Shown here: in pieces, positions 29,670 to 59,830 of the stretch
Numbering within the stretch: the stretch's first letter is position 1
Layout of the letters: each line of letters opens with the position of its first letter
Notes under the pieces: model-generated
The model's database searches: none
Seen by the model: only the letters and a program-made list of their open reading frames with translations
Told to the model about the DNA's origin: nothing
NCBI GenBank assembly: GCA_963800615.1
Contig: CAWDBO010000021.1
Span: 214,423 to 278,422, forward strand
From: an uncultured Chloroflexia bacterium
GTDB lineage: Bacteria > Chloroflexota > Anaerolineae > CG2-30-64-16
Direction: 5' to 3'
DNA: 64,000 nt
Translations under genes and position numbers: made by a program

Positions 29670-30546
29670 TGGAGCGACCCTCCCGGCGCTACCTGGGACA
29701 GGAGCCGCCGGACGATGACCTCGGCGATGTGCCGCCGGTACGCCGCCGATCCCGCGGATGTCGTCGATCGGGCTGGTGTGCGCCGGCCGCCAGGTGCGCC
29801 GCCTCCGCAATCAACTCGCCCGTCCACTCGTGCTCGCAGAGCAGCCGTCTCGGCCTCGGCGACGCGGATCGGGCAGGGTGCGACCGCGCCGAGCGCGATG
29901 GCCGCGGCGTGGGCCCGTCCATCCCCGTTGAACTCGGCGGTCACGGCCGCGCTGATCACCGAAATGGCATCCGCTCGTCGCAGGCCGAACTTGTGAAACG
30001 CGCCGCCGCGCTTGTTACTCACGGGCCAAAAGAGGCGGGTGAGCAGCTCGTCCGGCCGGCGAACCGTGCGCCGGACGCCGGTGAAGAACTCGGTCAGCGG
30101 CACGCACCTCGTGCCCTTGACGCTGGCGAGCTCCACTTGCGCGCCGAGCGCGAGCAGCGGGGGTGCGGTGTCGGCGGCCGGCGATGCGTCGACCAGGTTC
30201 CCGCCCACGGTCGCCCGGTTCCGCACGAGCGGGCTGGCGAACACGGCCGCCGCCTGCCTTAACGGCCGGGCGTGCTGAGCAATGAGCGGGTTCCGGAGCA
30301 ACTCCGAAATGGTTACTCCCCCGCCGACGGAAACGCGTCGCACCGTCACGGCTCAAGGCGATGCCCTGCAGCTCGGGCAGGCGCCCGATGTCGACCAGGA
30401 CCGGCGGCCCCGCGAAGTCGTCGCGCAGCTCGACCAGCACATTGGTCCCGCCCGCGATGGCCCGGGCGTCCGGCCCGTATTTCTGCCAGCAGTTCAAGCG
30501 CCTCGTCCAACGAGCGAGGCCGGAGTAGTTCAAATTCGGGAAGCAT
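29666..30546 (-). CDS. Molybdenum hydroxylase set B, FAD-binding medium subunit; about 5 frame breaks
   Basis: MLPEFELLRPRSLDEALELL, ARAIAGGTNVLVELRD, ASPLVRNRATVGGNLVDASPAADTAPPLLALGA and IDDIRGSAAYRRHIAEVIV are spread over ORFs 30346.., 30015.., 29666.., 29689.. and 26835... Confidence 0.8.
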
Positions 30547-31096
30547 GATCGCCTCGCACACAAGACGGACTAACACAAAGGCACGAAGCTACACGAAGGT
30601 TTAGCGGACTTCGATCAGGCTTGGTGTCTTTGTGTCTTTGCTGTTGTGCGTTGGCGGCCGCCAGCACGGCTCGCACGATGCTGACGTAACCCGTACACCG
30701 GCACAGGTTGCCGCGGAGATAGTGGCGCACCTGGTCTTCGTTCGGCTGCGGGATTTCCGCCAGCAGGCTCTTGGCGGTCATCAGCATGCCCGGCGTGCAG
30801 TAGCCGCACTGGAACCCGGCATGGTCGATGAACGCCTCTTGCAGAGGGTCCAGCGTTCCGTCCGCCGCCTGCAGGCCCTCGACCGTGCGGATGTCTCTCC
30901 CGTCGGCAGCCACCGCAAGCACGAGACAGGCGAGCACGGGCTTGCCGTCCATCAACACCGTGCACGCGCTGCACTCGCCGATGCCGCAGCCGTACTTGCT
31001 GCCGGTCAGCTGCAGCTTCTCGCGCAGCACGTTCAGCAGCAGCTCGTTCGGCCCCACCCAAACCCGGTGCGGCCGCCCGTTCACGCATAACGTCAC
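30530..31096 (-). CDS. Molybdenum hydroxylase set C, [2Fe-2S] small subunit; 3' end uncertain (reads through a low-GC spacer)
   Basis: VTLCVNGRPH..., [40 protein letters not shown] and [13 protein letters not shown]. The last ~35 codons, down to 30530, translate the spacer element and are probably not genuine. Confidence 0.8.
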   Translation of the reverse strand: MTLCVNGRPHRVWVGPNELLLNVLREKLQLTGSKYGCGIGECSACTVLMDGKPVLACLVLAVAADGRDIRTVEGLQAADGTLDPLQEAFIDHAGFQCGYCTPGMLMTAKSLLAEIPQPNEDQVRHYLRGNLCRCTGYVSIVRAVLAAANAQQQRHKDTKPDRSPLNLRVASCLCVSPSCVRGDHASRI

Positions 31097-31144
31097 CGCC
31101 CGCTGTTGGTCGGGTTCGAGGGTCAGCGAAGCTGCCCTACCCGC

Positions 31145-31178
31145 AGACCTGACAGGTTTCGAAAGACCTGTCAGGTCT
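31145..31178. repeat. Paired palindromes AGACCTGACAGGT / AGACCTGTCAGGTCT around TTCGAA
   Basis: Read directly. It lies in the spacer between the set C FAD and small subunit genes and has the same architecture as the AGAAACC(A/T)GGTTTCT pairs. Confidence 0.9.
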
Positions 31179-32103
31179 GGGACGCGCTCTGGACTGCCCC
31201 CGCCCGCTCCCACGCGCGGATCAGCGCATCGTGCGCCATCACCCGGACGATTTCGCGCCGGTACCACGCCTGTGGACCGCACGTCGTCGATCGGGCTGAT
31301 CTCCTGCGCGGCAAGCTCGGCCGCCTGCGCTGCAAGCTCCGGTGCGAACCGGCTTGCCCGCCAGCAGCGCCTCCGCCTGGACGGCTCGGACCGGGGTGGG
31401 TGCGACCGAACCGAAGGCGAGCCGGGCGCTCACGATCCGTCCGCCTTCGCGCTCGATGCACACGGCTGCGCTCGCCTTGGCAATGTCCGCCGCCACCCGG
31501 CCCATCTTCAGGAACGCGCCGCCGGTGCTCGGTCGCAGCAGGCCGCGCAGTTCTTGCTCATTGCCGGGCAGAAGGATCGCCGTGATGATCTCGCCGGGCT
31601 GAAGTGCGCTGCGGCCGGGACCCACGAAGAACGCGTCGATCGGGATGCGGCGCTCGCCCTGCGGCCCGAACACCCGCACCTCCGCCCCGTAGACGAGCAG
31701 CGCGGGCGCGGTGTCCGCCGCGGGCGAGGCGTTGCCGATATTCCCGCCCAGCGTCCCCATGCTCTCGACCTGCCGCGTGCTAAACGCGTCGCACGCTTCG
31801 GCAAGCGCCGGGAAATGCCGGCGCACGAGTGGATCGGATGCGATCTCCCCGATCGTCGTCATCGCGCCGATCACGAGTCCTTCGGACGTTCCCTCGATGC
31901 CGCTACAGCGAGGGGATGCCCCGCAGGCTCACCACGTGACCCGGCGCGCTCCGCTCCATCTTCATGTGTACGAGCACGTCCGTCCCGCCCGCCATGAGCC
32001 GCGCGTCGTGCTTCAGCAGCAGCTCCGACGCCTCGGCCAGCGTCGCCGGCTCGTGATACGTGAACTCATTGACGAGGATGTGTGTGTTGGTTGCCTGGCT
32101 CAT
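31171..32103 (-). CDS. Molybdenum hydroxylase set C, FAD-binding medium subunit; about 2 frame breaks
   Basis: MSQATNTHILVNEFTYHEPATLAEASELLLKHDARLMAGGTDVLVHMK, STRQVESMGTLGGNIGNASPAADTAPALLVYGA and IDDVRSTAWYRREIVRVMAHDAL. The ATG overlaps the upstream stop (ATGA 32100-32103). Confidence 0.8.
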
Positions 32104-34506
32104 GAGCGCACCTCCTCGTCGGCCGAGAAACCAGGTTTCTTCGAGAAACCTGGTCTTCTTGAGCGCCGCAAGGATTTTCTCCGGCGTGATCGGCAGCTCG
32201 TAGAACCGGACGCCGATCGCGTTGCAGATCGCGTTTGCATACGCAGCCGCCACCGGATTGGTCGCGGCCTCGCCGATGCCCTTCGCGCCGAACGGCCCGG
32301 TCGGCTCGTAGGTGTGCGCGAAGTAGGTCGTGATGCGCGTCGATGCAGGGCGTTTCCTCGAACCCCGGGATCTTCGCATCCACCATCAAGCCCTTCGAGA
32401 GCAGCTGCCCCTGCTCGTCCCAGCCGTTGTCCTCCAGCAGCGCGTACCCTGCGCCCTTGGAGAGCCCGCCTTCCAGCTGCCCCGCGGCCATGTCGGGGTT
32501 GATCACCGTGCCGCAGTCGCTCCCCATCGCCGCCTTGCACCGTCCGCACCTGGCCCGTCCAGGTGTCGACCTCGACGTCGAGGAAGACGGACACGTAGGC
32601 GGGCGGGCACGACGTGGGCCGGTAGCTCACCACGCTCGCGATCGTCTTCCAGCTTTCGGTCCAGCAGCGGGTGGCGACCTCGCCGATCGTCATGTGCTTG
32701 TCGGGGATCGAGGGCACGTAGAGCACGCCCTGCCCCAGCTTCTCGTCCATCTTCAGGCTCAGCGCCTCGGGCTGCACGTTCAGGAACCGCGCCGCGGTCG
32801 CGAACAGGTCGGCCTTGGCCTCCTGCACCGCCTTGACCGCCGCGCCGCCGCCCGCGTACACGCCGCGGGTCGCGTGCGTCACCACGTCGTACACGGTGGT
32901 CCGCGTGCCGGCCGGCGACAGGTTCACCTTGTCCAGCGGCACGCAAAGCCCCTCGGACACCAGCTTGGCGATCGCCTCCAGCGTGCCGCCGCCATGGTCC
33001 ATGAGTGCGGTGATCACGTCGATCGAGCCGTCCTGGTTGATCTTCACCATCGCGCCCGAGTAATCGATCACATCGCCCGGCTGCGGCGCGCCCGCGCTCG
33101 GACGTATGGAACCCGCGCGCCATCCCCACGCCCCGCCGGTACCGCCCTTCTCCCGCAGAAACCAGGTTTCTGCCAGAAACCTGGTTTCTTTCGGCGTCCA
33201 TCCCCATGATCTCCGCGCCCGTGTGCAGCAGCTCGGGCACGCCGTCCGACCGCACGATCGACTTCACCAGCGGACCCTGGCCCCAGAAGGTCTCGCCTTC
33301 GCCGATGTAGTTCTTCAGCCGGAGGTCGATCGGGTCCAGCCCCAGCTTCTCCGCCAGCTCGTCCATCAGCGACTCGACCGCAAAGGTCACCTGGGGGTTG
33401 CCGAAGCCCTGCATGGCGCACGACGGGACCTTGTTGGTGTAGACCGCGACGCCGTGATACTTGATGTTCGGCAGCCGGTAGAGCGAGACCAGCCACCCGA
33501 TGCACACGCCGAGGTAGGAGTACGCCTGCACGATGTGCGCGCCGATGTCCGCGAGGAGTTCCATCTCCGCGCCGAGCAGCGTTCCGTCCTTCTTCGCCGC
33601 CAGCTTGAGGCTGATCTGCGCCGGGTACTTGGTGTGCTCGTTCATGTCCTCTTCGCGCGTCAGCGAGAGGCGAACCGGCCGCCGGGCCTTCAGCGCCAGC
33701 GCCGCGCAGATCGGGAGGTTGGAGTTCATCTGGATGCTCGAGCCGAACGTGCCGCCGACCGGGATGCGCCGGACGTCGATCTTGCTCAGCGGGATATTGA
33801 AGATCTGGCCCAGGAGGATGCGGACGTTGTGGATCGATTGGGTGGTGGCCCAGAGGGTGAGGCCGCCGTCAGGCTCGGGCTGGCACACCGCGGTCTTCGG
33901 CTCGAGCTGCGCGTGGTAGATCTTGGGCGTCTTGAACGTCCCCTCCGACGACGATGTCGGCCTCGGCGAACGCCGTTCGCAGCGTCGCCCTCGGCGATCG
34001 TGCGCTCGCACGCGACGTTGTTCACCACCGGGATTTCGCCGGTCGCCGTGCCAGATGGTGTCGTAGATCGCCGCCGCGCCCGGCTGCATCGCCTCGACCG
34101 GGTCGGTCAGGACGGGCAGCACCTCGTACTCCACCTTGACCGCCCGGGCGGCCTGCTCGGCCAGCTCCTCGGTTTCGGCAGCTACCGCCGCCACCGCCTC
34201 GCCCATCCGCCGCACCTTGTCTGCCAGCACGTAGTGGTCGCGGTGGAGCGCCGAGGGGATGGTGACGATGCGCTCGTTGTAGCAGGTGTGCGGGACGTCG
34301 TCCCAGGTGATGACGACCGCGCCCATCGCCTCGGCCGCGCTCGCGTCGACGCTGACGATGCGGGCGTGGGCATAGGGGCTGGCGACGATGCGGCCGTGCA
34401 GCATCCGGGGCAGGTAGATATCGGAGGAGAACTGCTCCTGCCCCGTGACGCGCGCGATCCCGTCCTTGCGCTTCGTCACCTTCCCCAATACGTTATACTC
34501 TTGCAT
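32100..34506 (-). CDS. Molybdenum hydroxylase set C, molybdopterin-binding large subunit; about 5 frame breaks and palindromic insertions
   Basis: MQEYNVLGKVTKRKDGIARVTGQEQFSSD, IPVGGTFGSSIQ, AMQGFGNPQVTFAVE, ALMDHGGGTLEAIAKL, VEVDTWTGQV and TGPFGAKGIGEAATNPVAAAYANAI come from ORFs 32503.., 32100.., 32066.. and 31903... The position of the real stop relative to the element at 32125-32158 is uncertain. Confidence 0.8.
32125..32158. repeat. Palindrome pair GAGAAACCAGGTTTCT / GAGAAACCTGGT-CTTC
   Basis: Read directly. It sits at the junction between the large and FAD subunit genes of set C. Confidence 0.9.
33157..33189. repeat. Palindrome pair AGAAACCAGGTTTCT-GCC-AGAAACCTGGTTTCT inside the set C large-subunit coding region (33 nt)
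   Basis: Read directly. It translates in frame as RNQVSGRNLVS between ...MGMDAE and AGEGRYRRGVGMA. Confidence 0.9.
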
Positions 34507-34610
34507 CCTTGCCTCCGTTGGCAGGGGTCAATAACCACCAGGAACCCAAGAACCGAAGTCACACAAAGCTTCGTGAGCCTTTTCGCCTTTGGTTCTTTGT
34601 GGTGACCGGG

Positions 34611-35543
<933 letters not shown>

Positions 35544-40322: not shown

Positions 40323-41825
40323 ATGTTTCCCATGCGAAGGGCAGTCCAGGCCGCATGCCTGGTGACGCTGCTCGTCATCCTTGCCGGCTGTGCAGCCACG
40401 CCGCCGGCAGTCGCACCGGCGCCCGCGCCCACAACGGCCAAGGCAGCCGAAGCCACCGTTCCCGCTGCGACCACCGCTCCGGAGCCGGCAGCGAGCCCGG
40501 CCCTCGACGGCGGCTGGGACGGCAGTATCAACGTGGCAGGCCAGGTCATCGTCATCAAGCTGAACTTCAAGGGCCAGGGCGGGACCATCGACATTCCCGC
40601 GCAAGGTGCGCGCGACCTGCGCATGGAAAACTTTGCCGTGAAGGGTAACGAGGTCAGGTTCGAAATGATGCCGAAGCCCAGCACGGCCACGTTCACCGGC
40701 AAGGTCGATGGCGACAAAATGAGCGGCGCGTACGAGCAAGCCGGCTATAAGGGAACCTGGGAAGCGAGCCGCCAGGCGGCGGCTGCCGCTGCCGCACCCA
40801 CCGCGGCTGCCAAGGGCTACAAGGAGGAAGAGGTCACCTTCAAGAACGGCCAGTACACGCTGGCGGGCACACTGTCGCTGCCCGAGGGTCAGGGCCCACA
40901 TCCTGCGGTCGTGCTAATCAGCGGCAGCGGCGCGCAGAACCGCGACGAGGAGATCTTCGGCTTCAAGCCGTTCGCAATCCTCGCCGACGCACTGACGAGC
41001 AAGGGCATCGCGGTGCTGCGCTACGACGACCGCGGCATCGGCGGATCGACGACGGGCACGATGGATGACACGTCTGAGACCTATGCTGCAGACGTGAGCG
41101 CGGCCTACGATTATCTCAAGACGCGGCCCGAGATCAACCCGAAGAAGATCGGCCTGTTGGGACACAGCGAAGGCGGCATTATTGCCCCGATGGTTGCTGT
41201 CAACAAGGGCGACGTCGCGTTCCTCGTGCTGCTCGCCGGGCCGGGTGAGACGGGCAAGGACGTGATCATCGCGCAGGCGGCAGCCGTCGCGAAATCGAAC
41301 GGCGCGGACCAGGCTGCGGTCGACGAAACGAGAGCGAAACAAACCAAGGTGATCGACGCAGTGCTGACGGGCGAGGGACTCGACGAGGTTAAGGCCGAGC
41401 TCGTGGCGCAACTGAAGAGCGCGGCCGAGAAGCTGCCGCAGTCGCAGCGCGATGCGCTCGGCGATTTGGATGAGTGGGCCAAGAAGGGCGCGGAGGGACA
41501 ACTTGCGACGCTGCAGGGCGGCTGGTTCAAGTTCTTCTTGACGCATGATCCCGCGCCGGTCCTCCAGAAGGTGCATGCGCCGGTCCTGGCGCTCTTTGGA
41601 GGCAAGGACGTGCAGGTGTTGGCCGCGACGAACGAGCCGGCCGTCAAGGCGGCGTGCGAGAAGGGCGGCAACAAGGACTGCACGACCAAGGTCTTTCCGG
41701 ACGCCAACCACCTTTTCCAGGCTGCGCAGACGGGTAGCCCAAGTGAGTATACCCAGCTGAAGCCTGAATTCGGACCGGGCGTGCTGGATACCATCACGAA
41801 CTGGGTCGTGGAGCAGACGAAGTAA
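40323..41825 (+). CDS. Lipoprotein alpha/beta-hydrolase (serine hydrolase), intact
   Basis: AAGGAG lies 6 nt before ATG 40323. Lipobox LVILAGC; nucleophile elbow GHSEGG; PVLALFGGKD...DANH. The ORF has 500 uninterrupted codons inside ORF 39480..41825. Confidence 0.75.
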   Translation: MFPMRRAVQAACLVTLLVILAGCAATPPAVAPAPAPTTAKAAEATVPAATTAPEPAASPALDGGWDGSINVAGQVIVIKLNFKGQGGTIDIPAQGARDLRMENFAVKGNEVRFEMMPKPSTATFTGKVDGDKMSGAYEQAGYKGTWEASRQAAAAAAAPTAAAKGYKEEEVTFKNGQYTLAGTLSLPEGQGPHPAVVLISGSGAQNRDEEIFGFKPFAILADALTSKGIAVLRYDDRGIGGSTTGTMDDTSETYAADVSAAYDYLKTRPEINPKKIGLLGHSEGGIIAPMVAVNKGDVAFLVLLAGPGETGKDVIIAQAAAVAKSNGADQAAVDETRAKQTKVIDAVLTGEGLDEVKAELVAQLKSAAEKLPQSQRDALGDLDEWAKKGAEGQLATLQGGWFKFFLTHDPAPVLQKVHAPVLALFGGKDVQVLAATNEPAVKAACEKGGNKDCTTKVFPDANHLFQAAQTGSPSEYTQLKPEFGPGVLDTITNWVVEQTK

Positions 41826-41838
41826 CCTCACCCCCCGA

Positions 41839-41917
41839 CCCCCTCTCCTGTCTGCGGACAGGAGAGGGGGAGTCTCGTCCTTGGCCGCACTCCTGTCTGA
41901 GGACAGGAGAGGGGGAG
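41839..41917. repeat. Two direct copies (45-nt period) of a hairpin element CTCCTGTCTG(C/A)GGACAGGAGAGGGGGAG
   Basis: The first copy forms a perfect 14-bp stem, CCCCCTCTCCTGTC-TGCG-GACAGGAGAGGGGG (41839-41870). The second copy (41890-41917) differs at 1 of 28 nt. Confidence 0.9.
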
Positions 41918-42010
41918 CGGTGTCCTCAATCGCTCTCCAGTCCTCCGCGGAGAGGAAAGGAGGCGAGGTCCACCTCGTCGGAGTATGATGTCCCCACTAA
42001 TTGATACAAG

Positions 42011-43425
42011 ATGGAGGCGCACGGGATGGCTTCATTCCCTTTGGTTCCCCCGCGTTTTTTCCCGCCGCTCGAGCTGGAGTTTCGGCCGGCTGCGCTGGCA
42101 AACCGGGCCTTTCGGGGAGCCGTGATGGCTTCTGGACAGGGCGTCGCGCTGGTGGTCGGGCTGGAGCGGAGCGACGGCTCGCGCTCGCGCTTCGAGACGG
42201 TGGTTTTCCCGGAGGAGCATCCGCAGGCCGAGGCTAACCTCTTCTATGCCGAGCGGTTGGTGAAGTTTCTGTTGTGGGCGCGCGGCGGGTGGAGGGTGAC
42301 CTTGGGCGGAGCGCCCGGCATCGCCGAGCATATCCGCCGCTTGTACGCGCCGGGCGGGCGCGCGCGCGTTCGACTATCACTTCATGGGCGAGCAGATCTA
42401 CGAGCGCCCTTTTGAGGTGGTCGGGTGCCGGGCGGAGGATGTGCCCGCGGCTTCGGAGGCCGGCCAGCCCTTGGGCGGCCACTTGGACGGCGCGCGGATC
42501 GGCTTCGACCTGGGCGCGTCCGACCTGAAGGTGTCGGCGGTGCTGGACGGCGAGGCGATTTTCAGCGAGGAGATTGTGTGGGAGCCTGGCGGGCAGGTTG
42601 ACCCGGCATACCACTACGAGCAGGTCGTGGCCGCGTTGAAGCTCGCCGCGTCGAAGCTGCCGCGGGTGGATGCGATCGGCGGTTCTTCCGCCGGCATCTT
42701 CGTCGACGGCCGGCCCATGGTAGCGTCGCTCTTCCGCAGCATTCCTCCCGAGCGCTTCGGCGAAATCCGCTCCATGTTCGCACGCATTCGCGACGAGTTC
42801 GGCGTGCCCCTCGTGGTAGTCAACGACGGCGACGTGACCGCGCTCGCGCGGCGCGCTGTCGCTGGGCGACAACGGCGTGCTCGGGATCGCGATGGGTTCC
42901 AGCGAGGCGGGCGGCTACGTGAACGGCGAGGGCGCGATCACCGGCTGGCTGAACGAGCTGGCGTTTGCGCCCGTGGATTACCGGCCCGACGGCCCCGTGG
43001 ACGAGTGGTCGGGCGACGTCGGCGTCGGCTCGCAGTACTTCTCGCAGCAGTGCGTGTTCCGCCTGGCCCCGCTTGCCGGGATCGAAATCCCCGGCGGGTT
43101 GACCAACGCGGACAAGCTGAAGCTCGTCCAGGGCCATCTCGAGTCGGGCCACGACGGCGCGCGGCAGATTTGGGAGAGCATCGGGGTCTACCTGGGGTAC
43201 GGGGTCGCGCACTACGCCGAGTTCTATCCCGACTTGCGCCATGTGCTGATCCTCGGCCGCGTGACCTCAGGTCAAGGTGGGGAGATCATCCTGAGAGAAG
43301 CGGGCCGTGTGCTCGAGGGTGAGTTCCCGGAGCTCGCCCAGCGGATCAGCATCACGCTGCCGGACGAGAAGTTCCGGAGGTTGGGGCAATCGGTGGTGGC
43401 TGCGAGCCTGCCGACATTTCGTTGA
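42011..43425 (+). CDS. ASKHA-fold sugar kinase, ROK-like, with N-terminal extension; frame breaks ~42370 and ~42860
   Basis: IGFDLGASDLKV, VVVNDGDVTAL, LGIAMGSSEAGGYVNGEGAITGWLNELAF and VLILGRVTSG come from ORFs 42011.., 42384.. and 42877... Confidence 0.55.
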
Positions 43426-43506
43426 ACCCTTCAGCCCCGTCCGCCTCGACGATCGCGATCGGATCAGCGATGTCGATCGGACTAGGTGACTCGTTGATTT
43501 TCAAGT

Positions 43507-49135: not shown

Positions 49136-51910
49136 TTACTTGGCGAAGTTAGCGACGTTGTCCTTGGAGACGACTTCGACGCCGGTGTTGACGAACTTGT
49201 CGACCGTTTGCCCGCGAGCGACCTTGGCCGCCGTCAGGGTGCCGAGCTCGCCGATCTTGGTCGGGAACTGGGCGACGGAGCCGGCCAGGCCACCGGCCTG
49301 GATCGAGGCCAGGGCATCGGGGGTCGCGTCGAAGCCGACGATGACAAGTTGCTTGCCGGCCGCCTTGGCTGCGTTGAGGGCGCCGAGGGCCATCTCGTCA
49401 TTGGTGGCGAAGATGCCCTTGAGGTTGGGGTTGGCCGTGAGCAGGTTCTCGGCCACGGTCTGGCCCTTGGCGCGGTCGGAATCCGCGGGCTGGACTGCGA
49501 CGACCTTGAGGCCGGCCTTCTCCAGGGCGGTCTTGGCGCCGTTCTCGCGCAGGTTGTGGACCGGATCGCCGGCTGCGCCGCGGATGATGGCGACCTCGTC
49601 GCCGGCCTTGAGGGCCTTGGCGATGAACTCGCCGCCGAGTTGGCCGCCGAGTTGGTTATCGGTGCCGACGAAGGCGGCCTTGTTGGCGAAGTTGGCGATG
49701 TCGGTGTCGATCAGGACGACCGGGATGCCGGCGGCGACAGCCTTCTCGAGGGTCGGCTGGACCTGGTCGGCCTGCGAAGGTGCGACCGCGATGGCATCGA
49801 CTTTGGAGGAGATCGCCGACTCGATGATGCGGATCTGGCCTTCGATGTCGGTTTCTTCGTTCGGGCCGAGGAAGGAGGCCTTGATCGTCGGGTCGGACTT
49901 CATGGCCGCGTCGACGCCCGCGCCGACGGTCTTCCAGTAGGTGCTGGTCACGGCCTTGACGATGACCGCGATGTTTACCGGCTTGTTTTCGCCACCCGCT
50001 GCAGGCGCCGCGAAGTTAGCGACGTTGTCCTTGGAGACGACTTCGACGCCGGTGTTGACGAACTTGTCGACCGTTTGCCCGCGAGCGACCTTGGCCGCCG
50101 TCAGGGTGCCGAGCTCGCCGATCTTGGTCGGGAACTGGGCGACGGAGCCGGCCAGGCCCCCGGCCTGGATCGAGGCCAGGGCATCGGGGGTCGCGTCGAA
50201 GCCGACGATGACAAGTTGCTTGCCGGCCGCCTTGGCTGCGTTGAGGGCGCCGAGGGCCATCTCGTCATTGGTGGCGAAGATGCCCTTGAGGTTGGGGTTG
50301 GCCGTGAGCAGGTTCTCGGCCACGGTCTGGCCCTTGGCGCGGTCGGAATCCGCGGGCTGGACTGCGACGACCTTGAGGCCGGCCTTCTCCAGGGCGGTCT
50401 TGGCGCCGTTCTCGCGCAGGTTGTGGACCGGATCGCCGGCTGCGCCGCGGATGATGGCGACCTCGTCGCCGGCCTTGAGGGCCTTGGCGATGAACTCGCC
50501 GCCGAGCTGGCCGCCGAGTTGGTTATCGGTGCCGACGAAGGCGGCCTTGTTGGCGAAGTTGGCGATGTCGGTGTCGATCAGGACGACCGGGATGCCGGCG
50601 GCGACAGCCTTCTCGAGGGTCGGCTGGACCTGGTCGGCCTGCGAAGGTGCGACCGCGATGGCATCGACTTTGGAGGAGATCGCCGACTCGATGATGCGGA
50701 TCTGGCCTTCGATATCGGTTTCTTCGTTCGGGCCGAGGAAGGAGGCCTTGATCGTCGGGTCGGACTTCATGGCCGCGTCGACGCCCGCGCCGACGGTCTT
50801 CCAGTAGGTGCTGGTCACGGCCTTGACGATGACCGCGATGTTTACCGGCTTGTTTTCGCCACCCGCTGCAGGCGCCGCGAAGTTAGCGACGTTGTCCTTG
50901 GAGACGACTTCGACGCCGGTGTTGACGAACTTGTCGACCGTTTGCCCGCGAGCGACCTTGGCCGCCGTCAGGGTGCCGAGCTCGCCGATCTTGGTCGGGA
51001 ACTGGGCGACGGAGCCGGCCAGGCCACCGGCCTGGATCGAGGCCAGGGCATCCGGGGTCGCGTCGAAGCCGACGATGACGAGTTGCTTGCCGGCCGCCTT
51101 GGCTGCGTTGAGGGCGCCGAGGGCCATCTCGTCATTGGTGGCGAAGATGCCCTTGAGGTTGGGGTTGGCGGTGAGCAGGTTCTCGGCCACGGTCTGGCCC
51201 TTGGCGCGGTCGGAATCCGCGGGCTGGACTGCGACGACCTTGAGGCCGGCCTTCTCCAGGGCGGTCTTGGCGCCATTCTCGCGCAGGTTGTGGACCGGAT
51301 CGCCGGCTGCGCCGCGGATGATGGCGACCTCGTCGCCGGCCTTGAGGGCCTTGGCGATGAACTCGCCGCCGAGCTGGCCGCCGAGTTGGTTATCGGTGCC
51401 GACGAAGGCGGCCTTGTTGGCGAAGTTGGCGATGTCGGTGTCGATCAGGACGACCGGGATGCCGGCGGCGACAGCCTTCTCGAGGGTCGGCTGGACCTGG
51501 TCGGCCTGCGAAGGTGCGACCGCGATGGCATCGACTTTGGAGGAGATCGCCGACTCGATGATGCGGATCTGGCCTTCGATGTCGGTTTCTTCGTTCGGGC
51601 CGAGGAAGGAGGCCTTGATCGTCGGGTCGGACTTCATGGCCGCGTCGACGCCCGCGCCGACGGTCTTCCAGTAGGTGCTGGTCACGGCCTTGACGATGAC
51701 CGCGATGTTTACCGGCTTGTTTTCGCCACCCGCTGCAGGCGCCGCGGTCGGTTGTTCGGCTGCCGGCGCTGTGGTCGGCTGGGCTGCCACAGTCGGGGCC
51801 GGGGCCGAAGTCGGTGCTGTGCCCTGGCTCGGTGCGGCCGGCGTGCAGCCCGCCAGAGCGATCAGGACGACAAGGCTGAGTGCCACAAGGATCTTGAGCT
51901 GGGACGACAT
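49136..51910 (-). CDS. Lipoprotein with three tandem, identical RbsB-type (type I periplasmic binding protein) sugar-binding domains, intact 924 codons
   Basis: Lipobox LIALAGC and a P/T/A linker, followed by a 289-aa unit repeated three times: APAAGGENKPVNIAVIVKAV...VVLIDTD...FATNDEMALGA...VGFDATP...VSKDNVANFA. Confidence 0.85.
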   Translation of the reverse strand: MSSQLKILVALSLVVLIALAGCTPAAPSQGTAPTSAPAPTVAAQPTTAPAAEQPTAAPAAGGENKPVNIAVIVKAVTSTYWKTVGAGVDAAMKSDPTIKASFLGPNEETDIEGQIRIIESAISSKVDAIAVAPSQADQVQPTLEKAVAAGIPVVLIDTDIANFANKAAFVGTDNQLGGQLGGEFIAKALKAGDEVAIIRGAAGDPVHNLRENGAKTALEKAGLKVVAVQPADSDRAKGQTVAENLLTANPNLKGIFATNDEMALGALNAAKAAGKQLVIVGFDATPDALASIQAGGLAGSVAQFPTKIGELGTLTAAKVARGQTVDKFVNTGVEVVSKDNVANFAAPAAGGENKPVNIAVIVKAVTSTYWKTVGAGVDAAMKSDPTIKASFLGPNEETDIEGQIRIIESAISSKVDAIAVAPSQADQVQPTLEKAVAAGIPVVLIDTDIANFANKAAFVGTDNQLGGQLGGEFIAKALKAGDEVAIIRGAAGDPVHNLRENGAKTALEKAGLKVVAVQPADSDRAKGQTVAENLLTANPNLKGIFATNDEMALGALNAAKAAGKQLVIVGFDATPDALASIQAGGLAGSVAQFPTKIGELGTLTAAKVARGQTVDKFVNTGVEVVSKDNVANFAAPAAGGENKPVNIAVIVKAVTSTYWKTVGAGVDAAMKSDPTIKASFLGPNEETDIEGQIRIIESAISSKVDAIAVAPSQADQVQPTLEKAVAAGIPVVLIDTDIANFANKAAFVGTDNQLGGQLGGEFIAKALKAGDEVAIIRGAAGDPVHNLRENGAKTALEKAGLKVVAVQPADSDRAKGQTVAENLLTANPNLKGIFATNDEMALGALNAAKAAGKQLVIVGFDATPDALASIQAGGLAGSVAQFPTKIGELGTLTAAKVARGQTVDKFVNTGVEVVSKDNVANFAK
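49144..51744. repeat. Tandem repeat, 3 copies x 867 bp, >99% identical
   Basis: CGAAGTTAGC recurs at 49144, 50011 and 50878. I found 7 variable columns by eye, at copy-1 coordinates 49292, 49319, 49346, 49436, 49541, 49640 and 49847. Confidence 0.95.
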
Positions 51911-55758: not shown

Positions 55759-56686
55759 TTACAAACCGATCGACCGCAGATACTCGCGGTTCCGCCGCGC
55801 GCTTTCCTTGGGCTTGCCCATGCCGGGCAGGATGTCCTGCTCGACGATGCCCCATTGGATGTCGGGCCGGGTGTCGAGCCAGCGGGCGACCGCGGGGAAG
55901 TCGACCCCGCCCTGGCCCAGCTCGCAGAACACGCCGTGCCCCAGCGACTGGAAATAGTCCCACCCCTCGGCGCGCGACTGCGCGGCGACGCCGGGATGGC
56001 AGTCCTTGAAGTGGATGTACCAGATGCGATCGGCGAAGCGCTCGAGGCCCTCGGCCACCGCGGCGCAGTCACCTGCCGCAAACGCGTAGTGTCCGGTGTC
56101 GAAGACCAGGCCCAGGATGTTCGCGTCCGTCATACTGAGCAAACGGGCGATTTCGTCGGGCGTTTCGACATAACCCGCGCAGTGATGGTGGAACACCGTG
56201 CGCAGGCCCGTTTCTTCGAAGACCGAGCACGCCACCTTTTCCGCCCCAGCGGCGAACACCTTCCACTCCTCGTCGCTCAGCCCCATCTCAGGCGTGACCC
56301 GGCCCGCGTTCTGCGTGCGGACGGGGACGCGTGCCGTTGTTGTCCGCAAGGACGAGGAAGGGCAGATAGCCAGTCGTCCGGTCGGCTGCTGCGCGCAGCA
56401 GACGCGCCACCTTCAGCGCGGCCTCGACGCCGGGCGCATGCGCGTCCGGGTCCTTCAGCGCCACGGGCACGAACGCGCCGAGCATCGTCAGGTTCCGGCT
56501 GTTAAGCTCCGCGGCGAGCTTGTCCGGGTCGGTCGGCATGAACCCCCAGTCGCCCAGTTCCGTGCCGATGTAGCCGGTCTCCACGAGCTCGTTCAGTACC
56601 TGGGTGCAGCCCGCGACTTCGCCTTCCAGCTCAAACTCCAGCTGCCCCCATGAACACGGGGCGTTGCCGATCTTGATGTTTGCCAT
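55759..56686 (-). CDS. iolE: Inosose dehydratase-like TIM-barrel protein; one frame break ~56330
   Basis: GGAGGAATC precedes ATG 56686. [14 protein letters not shown] is at the tail of ORF 56288..58186; [25 protein letters not shown] and HFKDC are in ORF 55759..56349. Confidence 0.6.
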
Positions 56687-56704
56687 GATTCCTCCTTTGC
56701 TTCC

Positions 56705-56824
56705 GGGAGAAACCAGGTTTCTGGGAGAAACCTGGTTTCTTTGATCCCCTACCGGTTCGGCATTGGAGAAACCAGGTTTCTCGCAGAAACCTGGTTTCTT
56801 CGTTCCACTTACCGGTTCGGCATC
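56705..56824. repeat. Two tandem ~60-nt units, each a palindrome pair (GAGAAACCAGGTTTCT..AGAAACCTGGTTTCT) plus ACCGGTTCGGCAT
   Basis: ACCGGTTCGGCAT occurs at 56751-56763 and at 56811-56823. The second copy encodes the last codons (MPNR-stop) of the aldehyde dehydrogenase. Confidence 0.9.
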
Positions 56825-58335
56825 GAAATCATGCCGTCCCACGAGTTCAGCACCCGCCCCTCGCGCGCCTCCTCTTCCGAGAACCAGTGCGCGGTCACGC
56901 TCTTCTGTTCCGTAAAGAAGCGCACGCCGTCCGTGCCCATCGCGTGCAGGTCGCTGAAGAAGGAGTTCTTGTGGCCCGTGAAGCCGAACACGCCCAGCGG
57001 AACGGGGATGCCCACGTTCACGCCCACCATGCCGCCGTCGGTTCGCTTCGCAAACTCGCGGGCGTAGTAGCCGCTCTGCGTGTAGATCACCGAGCCGTTC
57101 GCGAACTCGTTGGCATTCATGAGCTCGACGCCTTCGTCGAAGTCCTTCACCCGCTTGATGCACAGCACCGGGCCGAAGATCTCCCGGTCGCCGATCGTCA
57201 TCCCGGACTTGACGTGATCGAACAGCGTCGGCCCCAGGTAGAAGCCGTCCTCGTAACCGGGCACGCTCGTGCCGCGGCCGTCGAGCACCAGCTCCGCGCC
57301 TTCCTCGACGCCCTTCTCGATCCACTTGATCACCGACTCGCGGTGCTCCGCGTTGACCATCGGGCCGAGTTGGCTGCCTTTGTCGTACGCCGGCCCGAGC
57401 TTCAGGTCCTGCATGAGGCGCTTCAGCACCGCGACCAGGTCGTCCGCGATCGCCTCTTCGGCCACCACGACCGGCAGCGCCATGCAGCGCTCGCCCGCGC
57501 AGCCGCACGCGGAGTTGATGATGCCGCGGGCGCTGCGCTCCAGCGCCGCGTCCTTCAGCACGAGCGCGTGGTTCTTCGCCTCGGTCAGCGCCTGGACGCG
57601 CTTGCCGTTCGATGCGGCGGTCGCGTAGATGTGCTTGCCGACGCTCGTCGAGCCGACAAAGGAAATGCCCTTCACGTGCGGATGGCGCAGCAGGATTTCG
57701 GCCTCGTTGCGCGAGCAGGTCACCAGGTTCAGCACGCCGGCCGGCAGCCCGGCCTCGACCCACAGGTCGCAGATGCGCATGGAGGTGTGCGGCGTGAAGC
57801 TGGCCGCCTTGATCACCATGGTGTTGCCCGTGGCGATGCACAGCGGGGCCATCCAGCCCATCGGGATCATCGCGGGGAAGTTCCACGGCGCGATGCCGGC
57901 GAACACGCCGACCGGCTCCATGTACTGCGTCGTGTCGTACCCGGTGGTGCAGTTCATGAGCGCGGGGCCCTTCATCAGGTGAGGGATGCCGCACGCGAAC
58001 TCCACGACCTCGGTGACCTTCAGCACGTCGCCCATGGCCTCGTCCCAGACCTTGCCGTGCTCCTGGGCCACCAAGTAGGTCAGCTCTTCCAGGTGCTTGT
58101 CGAGCAGCGCCTTCATTCTGAAGAGGACCTGCACCCGCTTTGACGCCGGCGTGTCGGCCCACGGCCGGAAGGCCGCCTGCGCGCACTCGATCGCTTCCTC
58201 CACCTCAGCGGCGGTGCACTGGGGCGCCTGTGCGATGACCTCGCCGGTCGACGGGTCATAGCAGTCCATGTACCGGGTGGTCTTCGATTCGCGCCATTCG
58301 TTGCCCACGAAATAGCCGAGTTTCTGCGTTGTCAT
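56809..58335 (-). CDS. mmsA: CoA-acylating methylmalonate/malonate-semialdehyde dehydrogenase, intact
   Basis: GGGAG-type SD before ATG 58335. APWNFPAMIPMGW, FVGSTSVGKHIY, EAKNHALV, CGCAGERCMA and GVNVGIPVP. No glutamate follows the catalytic-Cys region, as is typical for MmsA/IolA. Confidence 0.85.
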   Translation of the reverse strand: MTTQKLGYFVGNEWRESKTTRYMDCYDPSTGEVIAQAPQCTAAEVEEAIECAQAAFRPWADTPASKRVQVLFRMKALLDKHLEELTYLVAQEHGKVWDEAMGDVLKVTEVVEFACGIPHLMKGPALMNCTTGYDTTQYMEPVGVFAGIAPWNFPAMIPMGWMAPLCIATGNTMVIKAASFTPHTSMRICDLWVEAGLPAGVLNLVTCSRNEAEILLRHPHVKGISFVGSTSVGKHIYATAASNGKRVQALTEAKNHALVLKDAALERSARGIINSACGCAGERCMALPVVVAEEAIADDLVAVLKRLMQDLKLGPAYDKGSQLGPMVNAEHRESVIKWIEKGVEEGAELVLDGRGTSVPGYEDGFYLGPTLFDHVKSGMTIGDREIFGPVLCIKRVKDFDEGVELMNANEFANGSVIYTQSGYYAREFAKRTDGGMVGVNVGIPVPLGVFGFTGHKNSFFSDLHAMGTDGVRFFTEQKSVTAHWFSEEEAREGRVLNSWDGMISMPNR

Positions 58336-58357
58336 CCTTAACTCCCTTTGGTAAATG

Positions 58358-59830
58358 TTAGAATTTCCGCGCCCATTCGCCGAGCCAGCGCTCGACCACG
58401 ACTTTCGTCTGCGTGAAGAACTCGACGGCATGTTTGCCCTGAGCGTGCAGCGTGCCGAAGAAGCTGTTCTTCCAGCCGCTGAACGGGAAGAACGCCATCG
58501 GCGCCGCGACGCCGATGTTGATCCCGATGTTACCGGCCTCGGCCTCGTAGCGGAACTTCCGGGCCGCCGCGCCGCTGCTCGTGAAGACGCAGGCCATGTT
58601 ACCGTATTCGCCGCCGTTCACCAGCCTGATCGCGTCGTCCACCGTCTCGACCCGCATCACGCCGAGAACGGGACCGAACAATTCCGTCCTGGCGATGGTT
58701 CCGGCCGGGCGATGTCGCTGATGATGGTCGGCCGCAGGAAGTAACCCTGCTCGTAACCCTGGATGTTCGCGTTCCGGCCGTCAACCACCATCTCCGCGCC
58801 CTCATCGAGCCCCTTCTGGATCAGCCCCTGGATGCGCGCCTTGCTCTGCTGGGTGATCACCGGCCCCATGTCGACGCCATGCTCCAGCCCGTTGCCGACG
58901 ACCCGGCTCTGGGCTGCCTCGGCCAGGTGCGGTATGAAGATCTTGTCCGCATCGCCGACCGTGACCGCCAGGGATGCCGCGAGGCACCGCTGGCCCGCGT
59001 TGCCGAACGCGCTATCGGTCACGATCCTGGTCGTCAGGTCCACGTCCGCGTCGGGCAGGATGATGAGCGGGTTCTTCGCGCCGCCTTGGGCCTGCACCCG
59101 CTTCCCGTTTGCCGAGGCCCGGCTGTAGATGTGCCGCGCGACCGGGGTCGAGCCGACGAAGGTCACGGCCGAGATGGCCGGGTGATCGAGCAGCGCATTG
59201 ACGGTGTCCGCGCCGCCGTTGACCAGGTTCACCACGCCTTTCGGGAAGCCGGCCTGGTCGAGCAGCCCGAACATCTTCTGCAGCGTCATCGGGCAGCGCT
59301 CCGACGGCTTGACGATGGCCGTGTTGCCGCAGGCCAGCGCATAGGGCAGGTACCAGAACGGGATCATGGCCGGGAAGTTGAACGGGCAGATGATGGCGGC
59401 CACGCCGACCGGCTGGCGGATCATGTACTCGTCGATCCCGCGGGCGATGTCCTCTGAGAAGTCGCCCATCATCAGCGTCGGGATGCCCGCGGCGGTCTCC
59501 ACGTTCTCGATCGCTCGCCGCATCTCGCCGCGTGCGTCGTCGAGCATCTTGCCGTTCTCCATCACGATCGTGCGGGCCAGTTCCTCGAAATGCTCCTCCA
59601 TAAGCGTCTTCAGCTTGAAAAGGTACTGGATGCGGGCGGGAGCAGGCACCCGGCGCCACGCCGGGAACGCTGCCGCTGCCAGCCGAGCCGCCTCGTCCAC
59701 CTCGCTTGGCGGCGACAGCGGCACCTTCGCCAATCACTTCGGCGGTTGCCGGGTTAGTCACATCCAGGTAGCTTTCAGCCGCCGATTCGCGCCACTCGCC
59801 GTTTACATAATTCCGCAGTCTCTCTGCCAT
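58358..59830 (-). CDS. Second methylmalonate-semialdehyde dehydrogenase-family paralog; frame breaks ~59735 and ~58680
   Basis: [59 protein letters not shown] and [24 protein letters not shown] come from ORFs 59012.., 58657.. and 58358... Confidence 0.8.

Follow-up and report, generated by a model that had tools for sequence, protein, structure and literature searches.

A 33-nt REP-like hairpin in frame in the linker of a predicted molybdenum hydroxylase from Chloroflexota, compared with REP, REPIN and RPE repeats

Rickettsia palindromic elements (RPEs), which Ogata et al. reportedly described in 2000, are said to be selfish palindromic DNA that lies in frame in protein-coding genes, housekeeping genes among them, and is translated at tolerated positions. 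RPEs are about 100-150 bp long, carry a CGTC tag and belong to obligate intracellular Alphaproteobacteria; the element studied here, a 33-nt hairpin of a family that we term F1, at positions 33157-33189 of a 64-kb stretch of Chloroflexota DNA (the window), is not known to be related to them in sequence. Repetitive extragenic palindromic sequences (REPs) of the GTAG/CGTC type, which are treated in a paper that also mentions RPEs (PMC3733652; see also PMC1779305), are hairpins of 20-40 nt present in tens to hundreds of copies, with several families per genome. The genes on either side of them are co-directional or convergent, some copies supply stop codons and others are wholly intragenic, with a concentration of the latter in genes for replication and repair (Di Nocera et al. 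2013, PMC3733652). Furthermore, the REPINs of Pseudomonas and E. coli, which are linked to RAYT, a Y1 HUH transposase, are inverted doublets of about 100 nt with a spacer between two REPs; they form one long hairpin, show compensatory changes and occur as coexisting families (PMC3116915, PMC3337134).

The window lies on contig C21 of an assembly of 6.0 Mb with 66% G+C in 43 contigs. This genome under study is called G000 here, and G001-G003, G006, G007 and further G numbers denote relatives, of which G007 and G003 are from the same genus. The gene that harbors the hairpin has its closest public relatives in metagenome-assembled genomes of Anaerolineae (Chloroflexota) and is part of an operon that we refer to as set C. 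The features on which the argument rests are the following:

33157-33189, no strand assigned: F1 hairpin element, two 15-nt arms and a 3-nt loop, within the MoCoBD_1/MoCoBD_2 linker of the large subunit
32100-34506, minus strand: large (molybdopterin) subunit gene of set C, with PF01315, PF02738 and PF20256, read in three frames
31171-32103, minus strand: FAD-binding medium subunit gene, with frame breaks; its ATG overlaps the large-subunit TGA in the frame of the G007 ortholog (ATGA)

Our joint reading, to which we assign a probability of roughly 0.8, is that a REP-like F1 copy occupies a tolerated linker of an enzyme that is most likely functional, and that the breaks in the reading frame of its gene are assembly errors.

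The hairpin and its linker

The element reads AGAAACCAGGTTTCT-GCC-AGAAACCTGGTTTCT, an instance of the general form AGAAACCAGGTTTCT-N3-AGAAACCTGGTTTCT, and its predicted RNA fold reaches -28.1 kcal/mol (z -4.1). An earlier sequence-only reading of this DNA had described the copy as exactly 33 nt long and in frame, and both the sequence and its minus-strand translation bear this out: within a 667-codon open reading frame (ORF), the reading ...MGMDAE-RNQVSGRNLVS-AGEGRYRRGVGMA... follows the frame of the large-subunit gene, the element contributing the 11 residues RNQVSGRNLVS without disturbing that frame. Because this ORF matches PF01315 and PF02738, and the frame that follows it PF20256, the host gene is predicted to encode the large subunit of a molybdenum hydroxylase of the xanthine-dehydrogenase/CO-dehydrogenase family. 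The domains follow the order Ald_Xan_dh_C, MoCoBD_1, MoCoBD_2, the subunit matches 3HRD, 1RM6, 8UEM and 1N5W, and the element is located between the Pfam domains MoCoBD_1 and MoCoBD_2. In the best match in the PDB, nicotinate dehydrogenase from Eubacterium barkeri (3HRD), the end of the 425-aa large chain and the start of the 330-aa medium chain map to this very linker, and chain continuity is therefore naturally dispensable there.

Comparison with orthologs pointed in the same direction as the sequence-only reading, which had anticipated an insertion. No homologous residues are found at the position of the insert, where the orthologs of the same-genus genomes G007 (84% identical DNA) and G003 carry unrelated sequence, and the basal linker is shorter. 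In 46 of 88 orthologs, the conserved motifs WGQGP and GFH delimit a segment of 45 aa, and 25 distinct expanded versions of it range from 49 to 107 aa. Among these 25 versions, the extra DNA folds more stably than shuffled sequence with z below -2 in 11 and below -3 in 8. In some other expanded linkers, tandem-type repeat peptides are found, for instance SANGE or TQYAIRN; in other Anaerolineae, the linkers of orthologs and paralogs (L004, L029, L069 and L145) contain TQYAIRNTQYA, TEYAVRNTEYA, SANGE(n) and TQYPIPNTQ, and tandem-type repeats of these linker peptides also occur upstream of genes (e.g., in the 5' region of L009). These tandem-type repeats appear to represent a different class of repeat at the same landing site.

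A paralog on contig C34 of G000, 36% identical to the set C subunit, provides a second example. It has one intact frame of 760 aa, in which ...GHWQRPE RNQVSDRNLVS PGVKRGIGFAAGF... shows the same element in the same frame and the same linker, and its orthologs in G001, G002, G003 and G006 lack F1 and instead carry other, mutually unrelated inserts. The same linker was thus hit by two independent F1 insertions in one genome. In an AlphaFold2 model of the C34 paralog (predicted template modeling score, pTM, 0.75; mean predicted local distance difference test score, pLDDT, 69), the region forms a coil between a helix (429-441) and a strand (470-482), and inside the insertion, at residues 458-465, pLDDT falls below 50. 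The suggestion that the copy is tolerated as an 11-residue loop is strengthened by the split of 3HRD at this linker, by the intact paralog with the same insert and by the modeled coil, where local confidence is lowest. The molybdenum hydroxylase linker is a natural fission point that has been colonized repeatedly by unrelated hairpin repeats, and the set C enzyme most likely remains functional with its 11 additional residues.

Hairpin families, their genomic context and their turnover

The motif is abundant elsewhere in the genome, as a genome-wide count proposed with the sequence-only reading revealed: G000 contains 128 exact F1 15-mers at 76 loci, predominantly in the form arm(A)-N3-arm(T) with a total length of 33 nt. 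Within the window alone, the exact 15-mer AGAAACCWGGTTTCT has 7 matches, compared to 0 in 100 dinucleotide-preserving shuffles. Two sister families, F2 (A[AG]ACCTCSGAGGT[CT]T) and F3 (AGACCTGWCAGGTCT), emerged from a de novo hairpin census of G000, as did GTAG-type hairpins (e.g., GTAGGGGCGACC) and C-run/G-run hairpins. Allowing at most 2 mismatches per arm, we counted 80, 81 and 33 paired loci for F1, F2 and F3, respectively, with 146 of the 194 (75%) being exactly 33 nt long. Each F1 arm is itself a near-perfect palindrome, and the center base of one arm is complementary to that of the other in 65 of 72 copies (AT 51, TA 7, GC 4, CG 3). Compensatory changes in the arms of G007 copies keep the pairing between arms and break the palindrome within them, and the relevant structure is therefore one 15-bp hairpin. 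The F1 loop is variable, GCC and GGC being most frequent, and its orientation with respect to the mRNA strand (GGC 11 versus GCC 4) differs too weakly to be read. F1 and F2 are free of stop codons in every frame, and F3 has TGA in one frame, as read directly from the sequences.

The flanks of the elements provided no further signature. No position flanking F1, F2 or F3 exceeds 44% for any base, neither GTAG nor CGTC tags adjoin them, and direct repeats of 2-5 nt that could represent target-site duplications occur at chance level only. No T run was found downstream that would serve as a U tract, and the stem is AT-rich for G000, so that the elements do not qualify as intrinsic terminators. A search of Rfam with positions 30500-35000 (E <= 1) gave no match, and searching the literature for the 15-mer strings returned unrelated matches only.

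Where the coding strands on both sides are clear, 40 F1 copies lie between or within co-directional genes and 3 between convergent genes, none being found between divergent genes; often the copy is placed between a stop codon and the next ribosome-binding site (RBS). For a copy to count as in frame inside an ORF, both of its sides had to show an open frame of 40 codons or more together with a positive codon score. This screen, which is conservative owing to the frame errors of the assembly and missed the set C copy through a nearby frame error, found 13 of the 194 F1-F3 copies in frame. Among the hosts, Pfam matches confirmed Mfd (beside the RID domain), an Lhr-type helicase, DnaE (HHH_6 region), RtcA, a GT9 glycosyltransferase and a RecJ-like DHH protein. 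Furthermore, an F1 copy at G000:C22:47490-47522 joins the N-terminal (PF00456) and pyrimidine-binding (PF02779) parts of transketolase in one open frame. Since these two parts are separate genes in many prokaryotes, this copy represents a further element at a fission/fusion point. Genes for large subunits of molybdenum hydroxylases carry four of the 80 F1 loci, two in linkers and two at 3' ends.

Among 30 relatives, the number of copies of the motif ranges from 0 to 64, compared to 128 in G000. Beyond these, the 33-mer was found in 4 of 400 other sampled Chloroflexota genomes, three of which are from a family listed only as 'same phylum', outside the class of G000. In short-read assemblies from this family (G055, contigs C152, C256 and C179; G079, contig C42), the distance between the 33-mer and the contig end is 28-60 nt and the flanks are unrelated, and the hairpin may cause assembly breaks or drop-outs of coverage. 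A larger repeat unit was looked for at the contig ends of G055, G079 and G067, where no sequence is shared beyond the 33-mer.

G000 shares about 10 of the 29 loci of G007; at the remaining ones, the orthologous spacer of G000 holds a hairpin of another family, a GTAG-type REP or a terminator-like hairpin. Counted from paired G000/G007 sequences, shared F1 copies are 79-94% identical and have thus diverged about as much as their flanks (about 85% identity). The differences include an inversion of the loop at the junction of the large- and medium-subunit genes (L-M junction; CGA in G000, TCG in G007) and a swap of both center bases, changes that are expected from template switching at inverted repeats. 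From this distribution and turnover we infer that the F1 family is probably selfish and mobile. As a candidate source, a parent insertion sequence (IS) between closely spaced F1 copies was considered and rejected, the intervening genes encoding a RuBisCO-like protein, threonine synthase, ribosomal protein L1, MoaA and ABC permeases. The label REP/MITE-like given in the sequence-only reading holds in its first half, since the elements behave like REPs; as to MITEs (transposable elements of miniature size with inverted repeats), it does not hold, as a target-site duplication, a related autonomous IS and shared sequence beyond the 33-mer were all looked for and not found.

The most likely account of these observations is that F1 is a dispersed REP-like hairpin family that has spread through transcribed, mostly intercistronic DNA of G000 and a few relatives, a minority of copies having landed in coding sequence. 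The coding copies would persist because they add 11 codons, bring no stop in any frame and lie at positions of the protein that tolerate extra residues. On this account, translation of the copy at 33157-33189 gives a coil of 11 residues within the linker that joins the two molybdenum-cofactor-binding domains.

The remaining elements of the window are listed below:

32126-32140, 33157-33171, 33175-33189, 56708-56722, 56726-56740, 56767-56781 and 56785-56799: exact F1 15-mers
32126-32159, no strand assigned: F1 element at the L-M gene junction, one exact arm, second arm (32144-32159) with one extra base
31145-31178, no strand assigned: F3 element at the M-S gene junction, AGACCTGACAGGTtT-cga-AGACCTGTCAGGTCT, a AGACCTGWCAGGTCT pair
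56708-56740, no strand assigned: F1 element in an intercistronic spacer, directly upstream of the next gene's RBS and ATG (56669, minus strand)
56767-56799, no strand assigned: F1 element, second unit of a tandem duplication of about 59 nt that includes the last codons of the upstream gene (MPNR*)

The four F1 sites had been located to within one base in the sequence-only reading, three of the starts (given as 32125, 56707 and 56766) being one base early, and its description of four closely spaced pairs applies exactly to three of them, the second arm of the site at 32126 being inexact. The additional pair with a different core that it had pointed out at 31145-31178 is indeed present and belongs to F3. 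Every gene junction of the set C operon carries a hairpin element, F1 at L-M and F3 at M-S. The L-M element lies 9 nt upstream of the Shine-Dalgarno sequence of the medium-subunit gene, and its G007 ortholog is translated as the C-terminal tail ...QKPGFFEKPGFLAGEEVRS*. At the M-S junction, the first arm of the F3 element supplies the TGA stop (31171-31173) of the medium (FAD-binding) subunit.

Two side observations were made in the window. About 1.6 kb of G000 (positions 56677-58359) have a counterpart of only about 73 nt in G007, and the extra segment is bounded on its left by the F1 pair in the 59-nt tandem duplication. Positions 49143-49996 and 50886-51730 are both about 92% identical, ungapped, to adjacent parts of one G007 region (41789-43506), a pattern that suggests a local tandem gene duplication in G000.

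Frame breaks and competing explanations

Alignment of the DNA to G007 and G003 revealed seven single-base insertions and no deletions in the large-subunit gene of G000, which carry the frame through 0>1>2>0 twice, with one more shift at the 3' end:

near 34037, 33975, 33947, 33099, 32538, 32335 and 32150: single-base insertions

None of them falls within the element. It would be conceivable that the gene is a decaying pseudogene in which the palindrome is one lesion among several, as the seven frame-shifting insertions and the equally broken medium-subunit gene might indicate. However, isolated 1-nt insertions are in strong excess along the whole G000-G007 alignment (window positions 5866-62796 versus G007:C9:270000-323191), and of the 18 genes of G007 that are syntenic with the window, 12 are spread over two to five frames in G000. 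Because frame breaks of the same kind affect so many neighboring genes, those of the large-subunit gene are very probably regional assembly errors. The estimated completeness of G000 is only 75%, although its largest contigs reach about 0.4-0.65 Mb, and this value could itself reflect an error-rich assembly; elsewhere in G000, reading frames are intact in the C34 gene and in more than 700 long ORFs. Since, moreover, the element itself keeps the frame and the intact C34 paralog has the same insertion, we regard decay of the gene as distinctly improbable. The alternative raised in the sequence-only reading, namely that the element marks a site of gene disruption, is not supported as an effect of the element, as the frame breaks are single-base insertions that lie elsewhere. 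At 32126-32159 and at G000:C21:299732-299764 (L136), the assembled frames of two large-subunit paralogs run at their 3' ends through F1 into the medium-subunit ATG without a stop. Single-base errors of the assembly, and not genuine L-M fusions, probably account for these run-throughs; in G007, the KPGF-reading frame ends in the ATGA overlap.

For the elements themselves, a role as host-functional RNA or DNA signals has to be weighed, be it as intercistronic stabilizers of mRNA, processing sites or modulators of translational coupling, with the coding copies as by-products. Such a role would agree with the stability of the hairpin, with its placement almost exclusively in co-transcribed DNA and often between stop codon and RBS, with its presence at all three junctions of the set C operon and with two orthologous sites at which G000 has a canonical terminator-like hairpin and G007 has F1. 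It is nevertheless unlikely, since close relatives have between 0 and 64 copies, the hairpins found in orthologous spacers are unrelated, orthologous copies and their flanks diverge at about the same rate, and neither a U tract, another flanking signal nor an Rfam match was found; furthermore, the in-frame copies in dnaE, mfd and rtcA lack a plausible signal role. That the elements are classical REPs or REPINs mobilized by RAYT is less probable still, even though their size, inverted-doublet architecture, gene context and several coexisting families resemble those repeats (PMC3733652, PMC3116915) and G000 does contain GTAG-type hairpins. PF01797 (Y1/RAYT/IS200) had no match in the motif-bearing genomes G000, G007, G006, G028 and G003, which are 75-91% complete, while an E. 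coli RAYT used as control was detected; the RAYT genes found in other relatives (30 searched) are flanked by different GC-rich hairpins and not by F1, and F1, F2 and F3 have no adjoining GTAG/CGTC tag. Operators of a dimeric transcription factor controlling molybdenum hydroxylase operons, to which the near-perfect palindrome of each arm and the 4 of 80 loci touching large-subunit genes might point, are extremely unlikely. Copies are absent between divergent genes and present at gene 3' ends and inside unrelated genes, covariation keeps the pairing between arms even where the palindrome within an arm breaks, and the 128 exact 15-mers are near-identical while the loops vary, unlike the sites of a regulon.

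The reading of F1 as a REP-like repeat in a tolerated linker has to accommodate several observations that weigh against it. Without the element, the G000 linker has 7 residues compared to the basal 11, so that the event was not a simple insertion into the basal sequence. Comparison of G000 with G007 yielded no pair of filled and empty sites that was clean enough to delimit the insertion, the spacers being too diverged or holding other hairpins, and no mobilizing enzyme was found. In addition, the 4 loci at molybdenum hydroxylase genes compare with a rough chance expectation of at most about 0.7 in 80, an upper bound calculated with 22 genes of 2.4 kb, which hints at more than random insertion followed by selection. 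A more speculative proposal, which we consider doubtful, is that F1-F3 form a distinct, RAYT-independent class of 'nested palindromes' that would spread by a hairpin-directed mechanism and overwrite older hairpins in place. The repeated use of the linker (two G000 paralogs and more than 20 ortholog lineages) and the colonization of gene junctions would then reflect the targeting of existing secondary structure and not only survival at tolerated sites.

Significance and comparison with known systems

If F1 is indeed a REP-like repeat tolerated at this linker, small hairpin repeats in Chloroflexota would have been written into proteins repeatedly, at structurally dispensable linkers. Such insertions would amount to free 'linker-scanning' experiments for protein engineers, and they would also be a source of annotation artifacts such as odd low-complexity loops, fused ORFs and lost stop codons. 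Given the many single-base insertions in this assembly, apparent pseudogenes in it should not be trusted. Since F1 lacks the hallmarks of RAYT-associated REPs, it may help to uncover another mode of movement of miniature repeats. What the present analysis would add is the repeated colonization of a molybdenum hydroxylase fission point by hairpins and the interpretation of an apparent gene disruption as a probable assembly artifact.

In comparison with the GTAG/CGTC REPs, F1 agrees in hairpin length, in copy number, in the coexistence of several families per genome and in the location between co-directional or convergent genes, and F1-F3 share with them the supply of stop codons by some copies and the wholly intragenic position of others (PMC3733652). 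The concentration of intragenic REPs in replication and repair genes likewise has a counterpart in the in-frame copies in dnaE, mfd, the recJ-like gene and lhr, among others. Unlike these REPs, F1 has no terminal tag, its stem comprises 15 bp instead of 5-13 bp (PMC3733652), each of its arms is palindromic, and no RAYT was found in the element-rich genomes. With the REPIN-RAYT systems, F1 has in common the inverted doublet that forms one long hairpin, the compensatory changes and the coexisting families (PMC3116915, PMC3337134), whereas its 33 nt and 3-nt loop contrast with the length and spacer of REPINs, and no cognate single-copy RAYT was found.

The behavior of F1 in coding sequence is closest to that of RPEs, as it lies in frame in an intact ORF (C34, 760 aa), is absent from the orthologs and has other in-frame copies confirmed by Pfam, although it has only 33 nt compared to their approximately 100-150 bp. 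In the split large subunit of 3HRD, the same linker is the site of gene fission, while here it is the site of repeat insertion. F1 thus is an element with REP-like behavior, and RPE-like behavior of its in-frame copies, but without the tag and the cognate RAYT of REPs and REPINs, in-frame insertions as such being already known from other bacteria.

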